From positions 1 through 60,740 of the forward strand of contig JBAZQY010000003.1 in NCBI GenBank assembly GCA_041663185.1: a DNA stretch of 60,740 nucleotides. Direction: 5' to 3'. The translations under genes and the position numbers were made by a program. The first letter of the stretch is position 1, and each line of letters starts with the position of its first letter. The notes below the pieces were generated by a model that saw only the letters and a program-made list of their open reading frames with translations, searched no databases and was not told where the DNA came from. This document shows, piece after piece, positions 7,411 through 57,415 of the stretch. Source of the DNA: Minisyncoccota bacterium (GTDB lineage: Bacteria; Patescibacteriota; Minisyncoccia; Phycocordibacterales; UBA9973).

Positions 7411-8538
7411 TTATTCAACAATTCCGCCCCCTAAACAAACGTCATCATCATAAATAACAATTGACTGACCCTTATCAACCAAAACTTCTTTTTCAAAAAT
7501 AATTTTTGCTTCATTTTGCCCCTTAACTTCAATCCGACAACTTAATAATTCTCCATGATAACGAATCTGGACTTGATACCCGCCTTGACTCGTAGGCGAG
7601 GCAGGTCTTTTTTCATTTTCTGGAACATTTAAAATCCAATTCACATTATTAATTTTTACTTTATTACTACCCCCTAGGTCTTGCCTAGTGGGTTGTCTGG
7701 TTGTAACAGTAATCGTATTTTTTTCTATGTTTTTTGAAATTATATACAAAGGTTCTTCCTTCTCTGATTTTTGGGTTATTGTAAAACCATGTCGTTCACC
7801 AAGCGTAAAAAATACTGCTCCATCGTGGGTTCCAATAATGTCCCCTTTTTCATCTAAAACATCTCCTTTTTCCGACTTAATATAATGTTTCAAAAAATCT
7901 TTCATATCAAGTGGACCCAAGAAACAAACCCCTTGACTGTCTTTTTTCTCGGCAACTGGGATTTTGTATTTGTTGGCAAGTTTACGAACCTCTGTTTTCT
8001 TTAAATGTCCAATAGGAAAAAGAACGTGGACTAAATCATCTTGATTTAGTGTCCAAAGAAAATATGATTGATCTTTTGAAGCATCTACTCCTTTCTTTAA
8101 TTCGTAATTCTTAACCCGCCTTGCGTCGTGGCAGGTTCCTAATTCGTAATTATTTATTGCGTAATGCCCCGTAGCAATAAAATCAGCCCCGTGAGCTTTT
8201 GCAAAATTCCAAAATACTCCGAACTTCACTTCACGATTGCACATTACATCTGGATTTGGAGTGTTGCCCTTTTTATATTCTAGAATCATATAATCCGCCA
8301 CTCCTTTTTTATATTCTTCTTCAGCGTCACATTCTAAAAATGGAATACCGAGATGAGCACATACTCGCATTGCATCACGTCGCTCGTCTTGCCAAGTACA
8401 CTTTATAAAATCTGGCGTCCAAGTACGTATAAAAACCCCAACAACGTCATATCCTTGGTCTTTCAAAAGTGCGACAGAGACAGAGCTATCTACCCCGCCC
8501 GATACACCAACAAATACAGTTTTGTTTATTTTATTCAT
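7411..8538 (-). CDS. mnmA: tRNA 2-thiouridine(34) synthase MnmA
   Basis: GVSGGVDSSV, PNPDVMCNREVKF, ATGHYA, KDQSYFL, KKDSQGVCF, GQSIVIY. Start moved to MNKINK (8538). Confidence 0.97.
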   Translation of the reverse strand: MNKINKTVFVGVSGGVDSSVSVALLKDQGYDVVGVFIRTWTPDFIKCTWQDERRDAMRVCAHLGIPFLECDAEEEYKKGVADYMILEYKKGNTPNPDVMCNREVKFGVFWNFAKAHGADFIATGHYAINNYELGTCHDARRVKNYELKKGVDASKDQSYFLWTLNQDDLVHVLFPIGHLKKTEVRKLANKYKIPVAEKKDSQGVCFLGPLDMKDFLKHYIKSEKGDVLDEKGDIIGTHDGAVFFTLGERHGFTITQKSEKEEPLYIISKNIEKNTITVTTRQPTRQDLGGSNKVKINNVNWILNVPENEKRPASPTSQGGYQVQIRYHGELLSCRIEVKGQNEAKIIFEKEVLVDKGQSIVIYDDDVCLGGGIVE

Positions 8539-8568
8539 AAATTTATTAAAAATAGGTTGTGGAATATT

Positions 8569-8618
8569 AATTTTATGAGTCGTGTCGGAGCCCTTTAGGG
8601 TAAAGCGCGAATAAAATT
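8569..8618. repeat. Hairpin element, core family A (copy 1, degenerate arms)
   Basis: Core cgtgtcggagccctttagggtaaagcg at 8581-8607, one mismatch to the cores at 9633 and 29305. Confidence 0.85.
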
Positions 8619-8647
8619 GATATGCCACAACCTATTTCATTCACTAT

Positions 8648-9595
8648 TTATCTCATACTCTCCCACTTCGCAAATATACCACAAGGAAGTAACCTTTCGC
8701 TATCACTTTCTTCAATAGCTAGCTCACCAATCTCTATCTGCCCTTTATAATCTTTCATCATTTCCTTTAAATTATTCTCGTAAACAATCGGGGAATATCC
8801 GGCCGTATACCCATTAATTAAAACAAAAAGAGGTTTATCGGAAAGTAACCCTCGGCATAATTTCATTAATTCTAAAAAATTCTCTTCGATTTTCCAAAGT
8901 TCATCATGTGGCCCATGCCCAAAAGACGGTGGGTCCATTATTATAGCGTCATATTTTCTTCCCCTTTTCACTTCTCTTTTAAGAAAAGAAATAACGTCAT
9001 CAACAATCCATCTGATTGGGGCATCTTCTAGCCCCGACAATTTTGCATTCTCTTTGGCCCATTCTACTGCAGTTTTGGACCCGTCAACATGACAAACTTC
9101 CGCCCCAGCTTTAGCGCAAGCAAGAGTCGCTCCGCCTGTATAAGCAAATAAATTCAAAACTGATATTTTTTTAGAGGCAGAATTCCTAAACAATTTTTCA
9201 TGGTCTGGCCCCTCGTCCTCCCTCGTCCGAGGACCTGACAAATTGTTTAGGAATTCTGCCTTTTTAATTATTTCCTCCATCCATTTCCAATTAGGAAGTT
9301 GTTCAGGAAAAAGACCAGTATGCTTGAAGGATGATGGTTTAATTGAAAAATTTAAATCGCCATATGAAATATTCCAACTTTTAGGAATACCATTTTTCAC
9401 AATCCATTTCGTCTTGGTACCCTCACGTACAAATTTTAATTCAGCTTTTTCCCATATTAAAGAATCTTTTGATTTCTCCCAAAGAGCTTCGGGATCAGGA
9501 CGTCTTAAAAAATAAGAACCATATCGTTCTAACTTTTCTCCATTACCCGAATCAATTAACTCGTATTCTTTTTGTTTTGCTGTTTTTAAAATCAT
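8648..9595 (-). CDS. Class I SAM-dependent methyltransferase (RlmI/RlmK-like), with an in-frame palindromic insert
   Basis: HTGLFPEQ, VLNLFAYTGGAT, HVDGSK, DAIIMDPPSFG. Confidence 0.9.
   Translation of the reverse strand: MILKTAKQKEYELIDSGNGEKLERYGSYFLRRPDPEALWEKSKDSLIWEKAELKFVREGTKTKWIVKNGIPKSWNISYGDLNFSIKPSSFKHTGLFPEQLPNWKWMEEIIKKAEFLNNLSGPRTREDEGPDHEKLFRNSASKKISVLNLFAYTGGATLACAKAGAEVCHVDGSKTAVEWAKENAKLSGLEDAPIRWIVDDVISFLKREVKRGRKYDAIIMDPPSFGHGPHDELWKIEENFLELMKLCRGLLSDKPLFVLINGYTAGYSPIVYENNLKEMMKDYKGQIEIGELAIEESDSERLLPCGIFAKWESMR
9175..9261. repeat. 87-bp palindromic element inserted in frame in the methyltransferase
   Basis: Perfect 22-bp inverted arms aggcagaattcctaaacaattt / aaattgtttaggaattctgcct; GC-rich loop. 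Confidence 0.9.
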
Positions 9596-9603
9596 ATTTG
9601 CCT

Positions 9604-9687
9604 AGATCTGCATGATCATTAAAATTTTTATCCGTGTCGGAGCCCTTTAGGGTTAAGCGGGAAAAATTTTAATGATTATGCAGATCT
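9604..9687. repeat. Hairpin element, core family A (copy 2)
   Basis: ~26-bp near-perfect arms (agatctgcatgatcattaaaattttt) around core 9633-9659. Confidence 0.9.
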
Positions 9688-19663: not shown

Positions 19664-19690
19664 TCTCCGCTAGGACTTTCCTAGCGGAGA
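19664..19690. repeat. REP-like 27-bp palindrome, copy 1
   Basis: tctccgctagga-ctt-tcctagcggaga. Confidence 0.95.
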
Positions 19691-20325: not shown

Positions 20326-20352
20326 TCTCCGCTAGGACTTTCCTAGCGGAGA
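20326..20352. repeat. REP-like 27-bp palindrome, copy 2
   Basis: Identical to copy 1; abuts the RAYT stop codon. Confidence 0.95.
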
Positions 20353-21009: not shown

Positions 21010-21030
21010 GTTTATATTATATAACAATAT

Positions 21031-21057
21031 TCTCCGCTAGGAAAGTCCTAGCGGAGA
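21031..21057. repeat. REP-like 27-bp palindrome, copy 3 (opposite orientation)
   Basis: tctccgctagga-aag-tcctagcggaga, the reverse complement of copies 1 and 2. Confidence 0.95.
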
Positions 21058-21068
21058 ATTCATAAATG

Positions 21069-28187: not shown

Positions 28188-28280
28188 CAGGCTATATATA
28201 AAATTTTTTGAGTAGGTGTGGGCGCGCGCCGAGGCGAAGCCGAGGTAGGGATAAGCGAGAAAAATTTTATATATAGCCTG
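28188..28280. repeat. Hairpin element, family A-related (expanded core)
   Basis: Perfect 21-bp arms caggctatatataaaattttt; 51-nt core shares GTGTnGGnGC...TAGGGnTAAGCG with family A. Confidence 0.85.
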
Positions 28281-29287: not shown

Positions 29288-29347
29288 ACACTAAAATTAT
29301 TTTTCGTGTCGGAGCCCTTTAGGGTTAAGCGAAAATAATTTTAGTGT
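29288..29347. repeat. Hairpin element, core family A (copy 3)
   Basis: Arms acactaaaattatttt around core 29305-29331, which is identical to 9633-9659. Confidence 0.9.
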
Positions 29348-33992: not shown

Positions 33993-34076
33993 TTAGCAAG
34001 GACAGTCCTTGCTAATTTCTTGCTAATTTTAGGACAGTCCTTGCTAATTTGTTGCTAATTTGACTGTCCTTGCGAA
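33993..34076. repeat. REP-like palindrome plus 32-bp tandem repeat cluster
   Basis: ttagcaaggac-a-gtccttgctaa, then units starting at 33999 and 34031, then a half copy. Confidence 0.85.
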
Positions 34077-34658
34077 TCTTAATTTTATCCAATCTTGCTC
34101 CTGTTGTTTTTTGTTTCGAGTTTTTTGAGCAAGACCAGATGTGTGATAAACTGGAAATATATTTATAGAACAATCTTTAATGGGCGTCCCAATATTATTT
34201 TTAAGTTTATATTTTCTAAGAGTTTTAGATTCAGGATATGTTTTCTTAATTGAATATAATGCACTGTTACCTAATGGAACTATTAATTCCGGATTTGCTA
34301 ATTTTATTTGTTTTTTTAATATAGATAAATTGTTTTTTTGAGCCAATTCTTTTTGAAGTGGAGCATAATTCCTACGTTTTCCTGTTGGTACCCATATAAT
34401 TGCATTAGTTATAAATATATATTTTCGGAAATTTATCCCGAATGTTTTTATGAATAAGTGTTTAAAAAGTTTTGCTGAAGGATCACAATTTTCAAAAGAA
34501 ACAATTTCAGCTTTTGGTCCTGGACGTTCATTTATAAATAAAATTTTTATTCTATTTTTTCCTGGTATACCATTTTTAAGATCATTACTAGGTATAATGA
34601 CCTTTTTATTCCTGTTACATTTTTCACATTGTTTTCTATACTTTTCAAAAAAATTCAT
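34044..34658 (-). CDS. Uracil-DNA glycosylase superfamily protein
   Basis: CEKC, ILFINERPG, FITNAI, IVPLG, VYHTS. Confidence 0.8.
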   Translation of the reverse strand: MNFFEKYRKQCEKCNRNKKVIIPSNDLKNGIPGKNRIKILFINERPGPKAEIVSFENCDPSAKLFKHLFIKTFGINFRKYIFITNAIIWVPTGKRRNYAPLQKELAQKNNLSILKKQIKLANPELIVPLGNSALYSIKKTYPESKTLRKYKLKNNIGTPIKDCSINIFPVYHTSGLAQKTRNKKQQEQDWIKLRFARTVKLATN

Positions 34659-49687: not shown

Positions 49688-49806
49688 GGGTTAAGTCTGA
49701 AATAGTCTTATCAGAGGGGCTTGTGAGCGCGACGGCGCGAACACTGATAAAATTTCTAGTAAGAAATTTTAGTACCCGATGAGAAGAGCTATTTCAGATT
49801 TAACCC
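49688..49806 (-). repeat. Hairpin element, family B (copy 1)
   Basis: Arms gggttaagtctgaaatag / ctatttcagatttaaccc; core homologous in reverse complement to 57292-57415. Confidence 0.9.
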
Positions 49807-52350: not shown

Positions 52351-53227
52351 AATGAATGAAAAATTAAAATTTATTTTCTTTGGAACACCCCAAATAGCTA
52401 GCCAAACACTTGATATTCTAACTAGTTGTGGATATATACCTTCAATAATAGTAACTTCACCAGATAAACCCGCTGGGCGTGGTTTACATTTAACTCCTAG
52501 CCCAGTTTCCATTTGGGCCGAAAAACACAATATTCCTTGTTTGAAACCCGAAAAAATAACCCCTGAGTTTATAGAAAAATTAAAATCACCACCAGTCGGA
52601 CTGGTGGCCAGCCACCAGTCCGACTGGTGGCTGGATCTTTTTGTGGTTGTCGCTTACGGGAAAATCTTGCCTGAATCACTTATTAAAACTCCTAAATTAG
52701 GCACAATTAATATTCATTATTCTCTATTACCTAGATGGAGGGGCGCTTCTCCGCTTGAGGCAACATTATTAAATGGAGATACTGTAACCGGAGTAAGTAT
52801 TCAACAAATGGCTTTCAAATTAGATAGTGGACCAATTCTCGCCAAAGAAGAAATTCCGATTGAATTAAACGAAACCAAGGAAGAACTAAAAAACAAATTA
52901 ATAAAATTGGGAGGAGATTTACTTTGTAAAATAATTCCAGAAATTCTTGAAAATAAAATTACTCCAGAGGATCAAGATGAAACAAAAGTAACTTATTGCA
53001 TAAAAATAAAGAAAGAAGATGGCCAGATAGACCCGAGTGGTGATCCTATCCTAAACTGGAATAAATACCGAGCATTTTATGGTTGGCCGGGTATTTTTTT
53101 CTTCAAAAACGAAAAGCGAATTAAAATTACTAAAGCTAAATATGAAAATGATTCATTCATTATCGAAAGAGTGATCCCTGAAGGAAAGAAAGAGATTAAT
53201 TATAGTGAATTATTAAAACAAAATTAA
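52343..53227 (+). CDS. fmt: Methionyl-tRNA formyltransferase, with an in-frame palindromic insert
   Basis: FFGTP, DKPAGRG, VVAYG, NIHYSLLPRWRGASP, LDSGPI. Confidence 0.96.
   Translation: MNKMNEKLKFIFFGTPQIASQTLDILTSCGYIPSIIVTSPDKPAGRGLHLTPSPVSIWAEKHNIPCLKPEKITPEFIEKLKSPPVGLVASHQSDWWLDLFVVVAYGKILPESLIKTPKLGTINIHYSLLPRWRGASPLEATLLNGDTVTGVSIQQMAFKLDSGPILAKEEIPIELNETKEELKNKLIKLGGDLLCKIIPEILENKITPEDQDETKVTYCIKIKKEDGQIDPSGDPILNWNKYRAFYGWPGIFFFKNEKRIKITKAKYENDSFIIERVIPEGKKEINYSELLKQN
52589..52634. repeat. Inverted REP-like doublet inside fmt
   Basis: ccaccagtc-g-gactggtgg followed by ccagccaccagtc-c-gactggtggctgg. Confidence 0.9.
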
Positions 53228-57291: not shown

Positions 57292-57415
57292 AAATAAAAA
57301 ATTCTAAATAGCTCTTCACGTAAGGTACAGTAAATTTCTTGGTAGAAATTTACTCAGTTTTCCCGCCGTCGCGGTCAAAAGCCCCTCTGATAAGACTATT
57401 TAGAATTTTTTATTT
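57292..57415 (+). repeat. Hairpin element, family B (copy 2)
   Basis: Perfect 20-bp arms aaataaaaaattctaaatag; core shared with 49688-49806. Confidence 0.9.

Follow-up and report, generated by a model that had tools for sequence, protein, structure and literature searches.

An in-frame hairpin repeat of a dispersed palindromic family in a methyltransferase gene of Patescibacteria

How does a long, perfect palindrome come to lie in frame within an intact bacterial gene, and what does it contribute there? The question is raised by contig JBAZQY010000003.1 from a Minisyncoccota bacterium, of which positions 1 to 60,740 were analysed (the window, 60,740 nucleotides). Nucleotides 9175 to 9261 of this window form an 87-nt palindrome within a gene for a class I S-adenosylmethionine (SAM)-dependent methyltransferase. 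We consider it probable that the palindrome is a copy of a dispersed, non-coding hairpin repeat family of Patescibacteria (Paceibacterota) that was inserted into a linker of the methyltransferase in an ancestor of this lineage, and that it is translated as 28 extra residues.

The palindrome consists of two perfectly complementary 22-bp arms (9175-9196, AGGCAGAATTCCTAAACAATTT, and 9240-9261) that enclose a 43-nt loop. The GC content of the loop is 65%, versus 32% for the arms, and the sequence CCCTCGTCC occurs in it twice (9210-9218 and 9220-9228). Perfect 22-bp arms around a GC-rich loop with tandem copies of GGACGAGG had been described in the original prediction, and the arm coordinates, loop composition, and repeat positions bear this out. 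The computed folding energies are -29.3 kcal/mol for the DNA and -49.5 kcal/mol for the mRNA, with a folding z of about -9.7 and none of 200 shuffled sequences equally stable. This is also the longest perfect inverted repeat of the window. The window holds 11 inverted repeats with arms of at least 16 bp, whereas 40 sequences simulated from it with a first-order Markov model averaged 0.025 such repeats each, and their longest arms ranged from 0 to 16 bp. A scan for terminators did not call the palindrome. Only tRNAs passed when the whole window was searched against Rfam at the gathering thresholds, and in an E-value search at the element only microRNA-precursor models scored, far under threshold. 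The locus is laid out as follows.

8648 to 9595, minus strand: host gene, an intact 315-aa class I SAM-dependent methyltransferase (PF10672; closest structure 2igt; distant from RlmI).
9131 to 9160, minus strand: SAM-binding motif I, VLNLFAYTGG, residues 146-155, which starts six residues past the insert.
9175 to 9261, no strand: perfect palindrome, 87 nt, with 22-bp arms at 9175-9196 and 9240-9261 and a 43-nt loop.
9176 to 9259, minus strand: inserted element proper, 84 nt or 28 codons (A113-A140), from GCA to GCC on the coding strand, as delimited by filled versus empty sites, by protein lengths of 315 versus 287 aa, and by family termini about 26-27 nt from the core.
9203 to 9234, minus strand: conserved GC-rich apex, variant a, GTCCTCGGACGAGGGAGGACGAGGGGCCAGAC, which holds the tandem GGACGAGG, as judged by comparison of family copies.
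9240 to 9261, minus strand: 5' arm on the coding strand, AGGCAGAATTCCTAAACAATTT; by comparison with the family termini, its outer GCAGAAT is the reverse complement of the right terminus and not GCTNCRY.
9175 to 9196, minus strand: 3' arm on the coding strand, AAATTGTTTAGGAATTCTGCCT, with an outer part, ATTCTGCC, that comes close to the family right terminus YTYCGC.

The palindrome lies in frame in the open reading frame (ORF) at 8648-9595 on the minus strand and encodes A113-A140 (AEFLNNLSGPRTREDEGPDHEKLFRNSA), flanked by EEIIKK and SKKISVLNLFAYTGG. Translation of the ORF and the position of motif I thus agree with the original prediction, which placed the insert between these two flanks, just upstream of that motif. 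The closest solved relative of the host protein is 2igt, an Agrobacterium SAM-dependent methyltransferase (E = 9e-64), and RlmI, RlmO, and RlmKL are distant relatives. Homologues number in the thousands, with the closest derived from Patescibacteria (source names Paceibacterota or Nomurabacteria), and the gene order YceG, methyltransferase, MnmA is conserved. A pseudogene had been named beforehand as grounds for abandoning the idea of an in-frame insertion, but the gene is no pseudogene: the ORF is intact, the family's invariant residues are all present in the protein, and the fold is predicted with confidence. Indeed, the AlphaFold model has a mean pLDDT of 86.9 and matches 2igt with a TM-score of 0.82. 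Within the insert, residues 113-119 are modeled as a prolongation of the preceding helix, and residues 120-141 are of low confidence (pLDDT of 61 over residues 121-130 and 52 over residues 131-140). The model therefore suggests that the insert is not part of the core fold but belongs to the linker that joins the N-terminal domain to the Rossmann fold. The element very probably adds 28 residues to a flexible linker of this RNA-methyltransferase-like protein.

Comparison with homologues indicates that the segment was added to the gene. The HMMER alignment to 2igt falls into two blocks, query residues 2-113 and 139-312, and these abut at chain residues 150/151 with no residues between them. Most of the 120 closest homologues are 285-289 aa long and lack the segment, reading IIKK-ENRKISVLNLF at the corresponding position, and Firmicutes orthologues have an 11-codon linker at the site. 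The comparative DNA came mostly from contig look-ups, because a scan of species genomes yielded few close relatives, and the DNA of one homologue (P0016) was left out. An empty site is present in the orthologue on contig L207, where the protein reads KK/ENRKISV and the DNA ATTAAAAAA/GAAAAT (codons ATT ATT AAA AAA / GAA AAT AGA AAG ATA). In the filled sites of the window and of contig L081, a segment of the form GCx...GCC stands between the same flanks as in L207. From this comparison of filled and empty sites, the insert measures 84 nt, or 28 codons. The palindrome reaches 87 nt because pairing chances to continue past the insert, through two bases of the Lys112 codon and one of the Ser141 codon. 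The original prediction, which assigned 29 codons to the insert and expected a gap of about 29 aa in alignments, is therefore accurate for the length of the palindrome and for the presence of a gap in 2igt and in most of the 120 closest homologues, but it exceeds the size of the insert by one codon.

A related insert (LDNFSGPR...PDHEKLSKDSA) occupies this site in nine other homologues, and the DNA of seven of these nine forms hairpins with the common core TCAGGTCCTCGGAYGAGG...CCAGACCATGA. Some orthologous copies exhibit decay, with L082 drifting towards AT and with short tips in L085, L087, and L088. The short linkers of L006 (GCTTCA-ACAAT-AAAGAT), P0106, P0040, and P0023 resemble deletion remnants, and the closest orthologues, P0005 and P0006, are without the element.

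An alternative is that no repeat element is involved: the gene's own sequence could have given rise to the palindrome on the spot, through inverted duplication or template switching, or the palindrome could be an ancestral linker lost elsewhere. Conversion between arms does appear to operate at 9175-9261 (see below), and coding palindromes that lack mobile elements are present in the mitochondria of Nematomorpha (PMC6649704). However, neither arm matches any sequence of the insert-free orthologues, the apex and termini match at least about 95 copies at other loci, and the segment is absent both from distant homologues and from 2igt. A local origin is therefore highly improbable. Derivation of an arm from the host sequence was considered and rejected at this locus, since neither arm matches the empty site.

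Other insertions have occurred at the same linker. One is a second GC-rich hairpin (GKRPCLKGAQGKA), which has a 13-bp perfect stem in L001. Another, which we call type B, is a 21-bp tandem duplication, and nested combinations of it with the GC-rich hairpin insert also occur. Type B inserts (NYELRIKNE) were evaluated as palindromes, and this assignment was rejected in favor of the tandem duplication. Selection for a tolerant linker is the simplest reason for such variety at one site, and a preference for A-rich targets is an alternative. The distant relative L003 (3001-3978) has a different in-frame hairpin at this linker, more than 100 nt long with 18-bp perfect arms (GTGGCAGTTCTGATATAG) and a folding energy of -63.8 kcal/mol, and small GC hairpins are present at the same site in L004 and L019.

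Does the element exist outside of this gene? A profile built from the methyltransferase copies revealed the same core elsewhere on the same contigs, inside MnmA genes or between genes, where it is bordered by quite different arms. A scan of metagenome contigs with the pattern GTCCTCGGAYGAGG-N(5-30)-CCAGAC returned at least 117 stretches. Among the matches listed, to which all counts of copies given below also refer, at least 93-96 are distinct copies on contigs of 30-37% GC, nearly all of them in hairpins of 63-134 nt, with several family copies per contig. Matches on contigs of 50-75% GC form no hairpins and were set aside as chance occurrences. A scan of viral contigs for the core gave only a single chance match, which lies on a contig of 62% GC and forms no hairpin.

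The family has a consistent layout of about 85-90 nt in total, in which a conserved, GC-rich apex of 32-36 nt (GTCCTCGGAYGAGG...CCAGAC) is borne on AT-rich, self-complementary arms that end in asymmetric termini. A GCTNCRY-like motif starts about 26 nt 5' of the core in 41 of 92 copies (2-5 in controls), and a YTYCGC-like motif ends about 27 nt 3' of the core in 32 of 92 (2-5 in controls). These conserved termini, GCTNCRY...YTYCGC, are asymmetric and not inverted. One intergenic subfamily has kept its arms, with the form CAAATTATATTCTGAAAAAAG-core-CATTTTTTCATAAAATAATTTG, and is located between the genes for pol III delta' and RRF (L081), in a different spacer (L088), and between the YceG and methyltransferase genes (L207). 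Because the same arms recur between different gene pairs, it appears that the whole unit spread. The YceG-methyltransferase spacer of L081 (9579-9715) also holds a copy with the arms of the intergenic subfamily. This copy is antisense and has an enlarged, different apex (GTCCTCGGATCTCCTCGCCCATTAG...GGCCAGAC), whereas the copy in the same spacer of L207 is sense and has the standard apex.

When a profile made from 92 copies was run over the 60.7-kb window, the palindrome at 9175-9261 was the only copy found. Thus, the expectation that the loop sequence would recur in the genome is realized by at least about 95 copies on metagenome contigs and not by a second copy in the window. Likewise, it had been proposed that an intergenic hairpin system of the window itself invades coding DNA. 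Intergenic copies of the family do exist, but in related genomes only, and the hairpins of the window at 8550, 9604, 28188, 29288, and elsewhere belong to other families. The proposed resemblance between the loop and the core at 28188 does not hold, given that only the hexamer CCTCGG/CGAGG is common to both and that blastn-short gives no alignment.

Those four hairpins (8550-8637, 9604-9687, 29288-29347, and 28188-28280) constitute a second hairpin-repeat family with the core TCGCTTA[AT]CCCT...GCGC[TG]CC[GC]ACAC. Three copies have a short apex and carry an identical 27-nt core on unrelated AT-rich arms, with two of these copies flanking the methyltransferase gene, and the copy at 28188 has a long apex. 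Relatives of this second family are present in L001 (in the same methyltransferase-MnmA spacer, with similar outer arms AAATAGGT and ACCTATTT), L130, L176, L105, and L179.

If the element is dispersed, how often is it read as protein? Depending on which of three slightly different criteria is applied, long ORFs run across 44-47 copies and leave out 48-49 others, and at most one copy might represent a split gene. About half of the copies are therefore read through by ORFs. The four readings of the element are as follows.

Sense frame 1: SGPR[TM]REDE.PDH
Sense frame 2: RSSDEGGRGARP
Sense frame 3: VLGRGGREPVPDH
Antisense reading: for example, WSGPSSSLVRGPE

Hosts identified by Pfam include Tgt, a class-V aminotransferase, Dus, an M1 aminopeptidase, PheT (two copies), LeuRS, UvrB, and UvrA, and MnmA is a host as well. 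The M1 aminopeptidase orthologues L110 and L164 each have a copy in one common surface loop. The two copies point in opposite directions and their arms are unrelated, a sign that they were inserted independently at a single tolerant site. The canonical intergenic subfamily, as read from its sequence, has stop codons in all three sense frames. This is consistent with the fact that the coding copies have different arms. The core is on the sense strand of 38 copies in genes versus 7 antisense, and of 28 versus 6 copies between co-directional genes, and no copy lies between convergent or divergent genes. Intergenic copies occupy the space from one stop codon to the next start.

Perhaps the insert is never translated, but is instead cut out of the mRNA or passed over by the ribosome, as in Magnusiomyces mitochondria or the bypass of T4 gene 60. 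A hairpin as stable as -49.5 kcal/mol within a coding sequence would suit such a process, and bypassed GC-rich palindromic inserts in yeast mitochondria are among the cases cited in PMC6649704. Excision or bypass would leave reading frame and stop codons unconstrained, whereas the intragenic copies are in frame and stop-free across five different frames, which argues for translation. In addition, the encoded peptides are hydrophilic, with abundant Gly, Pro, Arg, Asp, and Glu, which is the composition that tolerated loops would be expected to have. We regard an untranslated insert as very unlikely, and these patterns strongly suggest that the insert is translated. The original prediction, in which a palindrome inserts in frame and supplies a new peptide segment as Rickettsia elements do, gains support from the empty sites, the intact gene, and the copies elsewhere, about half of which are read through, with translation as the inferred component.

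The arms of the element offer a view of its history. Among eight methyltransferase copies, 10 of the 27 predicted pairs exhibit compensatory double changes. The two arms of one copy have a complementarity of 0.75, against 0.44 for arms taken from different copies, and arm identity between copies (0.46) is near random. Considered by locus, arm similarity is 0.68-1.0 for the methyltransferase, 0.77-0.82 for MnmA, and about 0.5-0.6 for different loci. Because the arms of the methyltransferase copies are alike, the copies at this site most likely share descent from one insertion. The window's copy combines a right terminus (GGAATTCTGCC) near the family form with a left terminus (GGCAGAATTCC) that is the exact reverse complement of that right terminus, and L081 keeps the canonical left terminus GCTTCAC. 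It therefore appears that one arm was copied from the other, giving the perfect 22 bp. Template-switch correction of quasi-palindromes is discussed as a known process in PMC6649704, and we infer a comparable arm-to-arm conversion here.

Based on these findings, the following history seems reasonable. An ancestor of the lineage would have gained a copy within the methyltransferase linker that separates the N-terminal domain from the Rossmann fold, and this copy would have been transcribed and translated as 28 extra hydrophilic residues. It may have survived because its length is a multiple of three, because it has no stop codon in the frame used, and because the linker is tolerant. After this single insertion, decay, loss of the tip, or deletion would have followed in many lineages, and the arms would have been kept complementary by copying of one from the other through template switching at a quasi-palindrome. 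In the lineage of the window, such copying would have overwritten the left terminus to yield perfect 22-bp arms. The element itself is presumably selfish.

Compensatory changes are also expected if the hairpin is a selected cis-acting RNA or DNA structure, such as one that affects mRNA stability, processing, or pausing or that serves as a binding site for a host protein, with the peptide as a by-product. Conservation of the apex that reaches synonymous positions fits this possibility, as do the strong sense-strand bias, the lack of copies between convergent or divergent genes, and the intergenic copies that fill the space from stop to start. However, arm-to-arm conversion explains the compensatory changes without selection, and the strand bias may simply mirror the co-orientation of genes with replication. 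Furthermore, most orthologues lack the element, the closest ones (P0005 and P0006) among them, and in others it has decayed. The same element also occurs at arbitrary positions in unrelated genes, in several frames and in antisense, and it matches no Rfam family. A selected structure is thus unlikely to be the primary explanation, and we favor an inserted and translated repeat.

The insert and the host gene differ in how they diverge, as illustrated by the window and L081.

Window versus L081, host gene: overall identity 0.75, third-position identity 0.51.
Window versus L081, insert: overall identity 0.80, third-position identity 0.79.

Several other pairs exhibit the same third-position pattern. 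The insert appears to evolve unlike codons, which could reflect either conservation at the nucleotide level or cores that are younger than the arms. At the methyltransferase locus, the core is of variant a, b, or c depending on the lineage, and each variant is also found at other loci of the same or related genomes. Cores that differ by one base or less account for four of seven within-contig pairs versus 28% of between-contig pairs, although the sample is small and is only suggestive of concerted evolution of cores within contigs.

Taken with apex conservation and strand bias, these variants suggest that apexes evolve in concert or are replaced and that a strand-specific process is at work. 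It is tempting, although rather doubtful, to speculate that the GC-rich apex is a module that moves or is rewritten apart from its stem, and that Patescibacteria have an activity that recognizes hairpin apexes and homogenizes or replaces them. This possibility is raised because arms are inherited vertically at each locus, with methyltransferase copies from different genomes alike over 68-100% of the left arm, while apex variants match other copies in the same genome, and also because three second-family copies in the window bear one core on unrelated arms. Apex replacement might proceed by gene conversion that starts at the hairpin tip or by homing of cores into resident hairpins. If so, then apex replacement and arm-to-arm conversion together would be an undescribed way to maintain and spread hairpin repeats, even inside essential genes.

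Several observations weigh against the interpretation of the palindrome as an inserted, translated copy of a mobile hairpin family. Carriers of the insert are scattered in a crude neighbor-joining tree of the methyltransferase, which calls for many losses, for recombination between lineages, or for repeated insertion. No target-site duplication is visible at the filled (window and L081) and empty (L207) junctions, where A-rich, diverged flanks could hide 1-3 bp. A transposase or other mobilizing gene was not identified at the loci examined, and mobility is deduced from the distribution of the copies. The scan demanded 20 fixed core bases, and thus the counts of copies are lower bounds that are biased to intact cores. 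The core is on the sense strand in about 80% of copies, and its 12 unconstrained bases hardly vary between copies, although arm identity is only 46%; neither pattern is expected for a purely neutral selfish element. Finally, the case for translation is a statistical one, drawn solely from reading frames and stop codons.

The genomes of Patescibacteria are among the smallest and most streamlined known. In this setting, the family appears to be a functional analogue, in a new phylum, of the Rickettsia palindromic elements (RPE) rather than a member of that group. RPE are palindromic repeats inserted in frame in Rickettsia genes (Ogata et al. 2000, as summarised in PMC10969869). As far as the summarised accounts of RPE extend, the two have in common that they are dispersed palindromic repeats of small, AT-rich, host-dependent bacterial genomes, with about every second copy placed in frame in an unrelated housekeeping gene, where a peptide is added and the gene is not destroyed. 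In both, there is no known transposase and no clear target duplication, and copies decay over time. The arms of the family described here are actively re-matched, whereas RPE lose repeat identity over time according to the discussion in PMC6649704. Judged by the same accounts, RPE are longer (about 100-150 nt versus about 85-90 nt), give one conserved peptide per family instead of readings in three sense frames and in antisense, and are conserved as whole elements, in contrast to the conserved GC-rich apex and locus-specific arms seen here. The host, identified from homologue source names and gene order, belongs to Patescibacteria/Paceibacterota and not to the Rickettsiales, and it is on these features that the two groups are set apart.

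Yeast mitochondrial GC clusters and byps are short, GC-rich palindromic inserts that land in protein-coding genes of AT-rich genomes. Byps are skipped by the ribosome and their frame is unconstrained, whereas every intragenic copy of the family described here is in frame and stop-free. The coding palindromes of Nematomorpha mitochondria (PMC6649704) resemble the present case in that long, perfect inverted repeats reside in translated genes and their arms are apparently kept by conversion or template switching rather than by selection. There, however, both arms encode conserved host protein and no common core or family exists, whereas here the whole hairpin is extra sequence from a dispersed family. 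Bacterial MITEs (miniature transposable elements with inverted repeats) found in genes (ERIC, BOX, Correia, and QMITE1; PMC10969869) and REP/REPIN sequences (PMC3733652) are likewise small, non-coding, hairpin-forming, multi-copy, and often co-transcribed with their neighbors. In the family described here, no target-site duplication is visible at the junctions compared, and no related insertion sequence or RAYT gene was identified at the loci examined. Unlike REPs, which are extragenic and conserve the arm (PMC3733652), half of its copies are intragenic and it is the apex that is conserved while the arms vary. In-frame intragenic copies are the exception in MITE and REP families but make up about half of the present family.

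Palindromic repeats that remodel proteins in frame at high frequency have been reported mainly in Rickettsia, and a 2024 review only speculates on other prokaryotes (PMC10969869). In the literature collection searched, also by way of papers that cite the Rickettsia study, no report ties palindromic elements to Patescibacteria. The phenomenon known from Rickettsia thus appears to extend to Patescibacteria, with several hairpin families and with about half of the copies studied, among the matches listed, inside essential genes for translation and DNA repair. For annotation, this means that puzzling inserts of 8-35 aa in proteins of the candidate phyla radiation may be repeat elements, and for phylogenetics and structure prediction it means that such segments would be non-homologous between proteins. 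Perhaps these genomes can be viewed as a natural, large-scale insertion experiment in surface loops. From the perspective of genome biology, the conserved apex, strand bias, and re-matched arms point to an enzymatic activity that acts on hairpins.

Additional hairpins of the window are worth noting. A second in-frame coding palindrome of 46 nt is present at 52589-52634 in the methionyl-tRNA formyltransferase gene. It is GC-rich and near-perfect, with 20-bp arms and a folding energy of -46.6 kcal/mol, and it encodes PPVGLVASHQSDWW, which amounts to about 11 residues beyond E. coli Fmt (1fmt) at that position. The MnmA gene contains two small, in-frame, GC-rich hairpins, AACCTGCC...GGCGGGTT at 8115-8139 and CCTGCCTCGCC...GGCGGG at 7579-7602, where the protein has 9 and 6 residues more, respectively, than the solved MnmA 2hma. 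The first of these hairpins has a 12-bp direct repeat, AATTACGAATTA, on its flanks.

A third, intergenic repeat family is represented at 49696-49798 and 57292-57415 by two copies in inverted orientation that are 89% identical over 70 nt, with relatives in L141, L179, and L192. The same small hairpin, TCTCCGCTAGGA-loop-TCCTAGCGGAGA, follows each of three consecutive minus-strand genes (19664-19690, 20326-20352, and 21029-21059) and could serve as a terminator or operator that recurs between paralogous genes. Lastly, inverted and direct copies of TTAGCAAGGAC/GTCCTTGCTAA are clustered at 33993-34073, at the end of and just outside the ORF at 34044-34658, in an arrangement that looks like an operator-site array.

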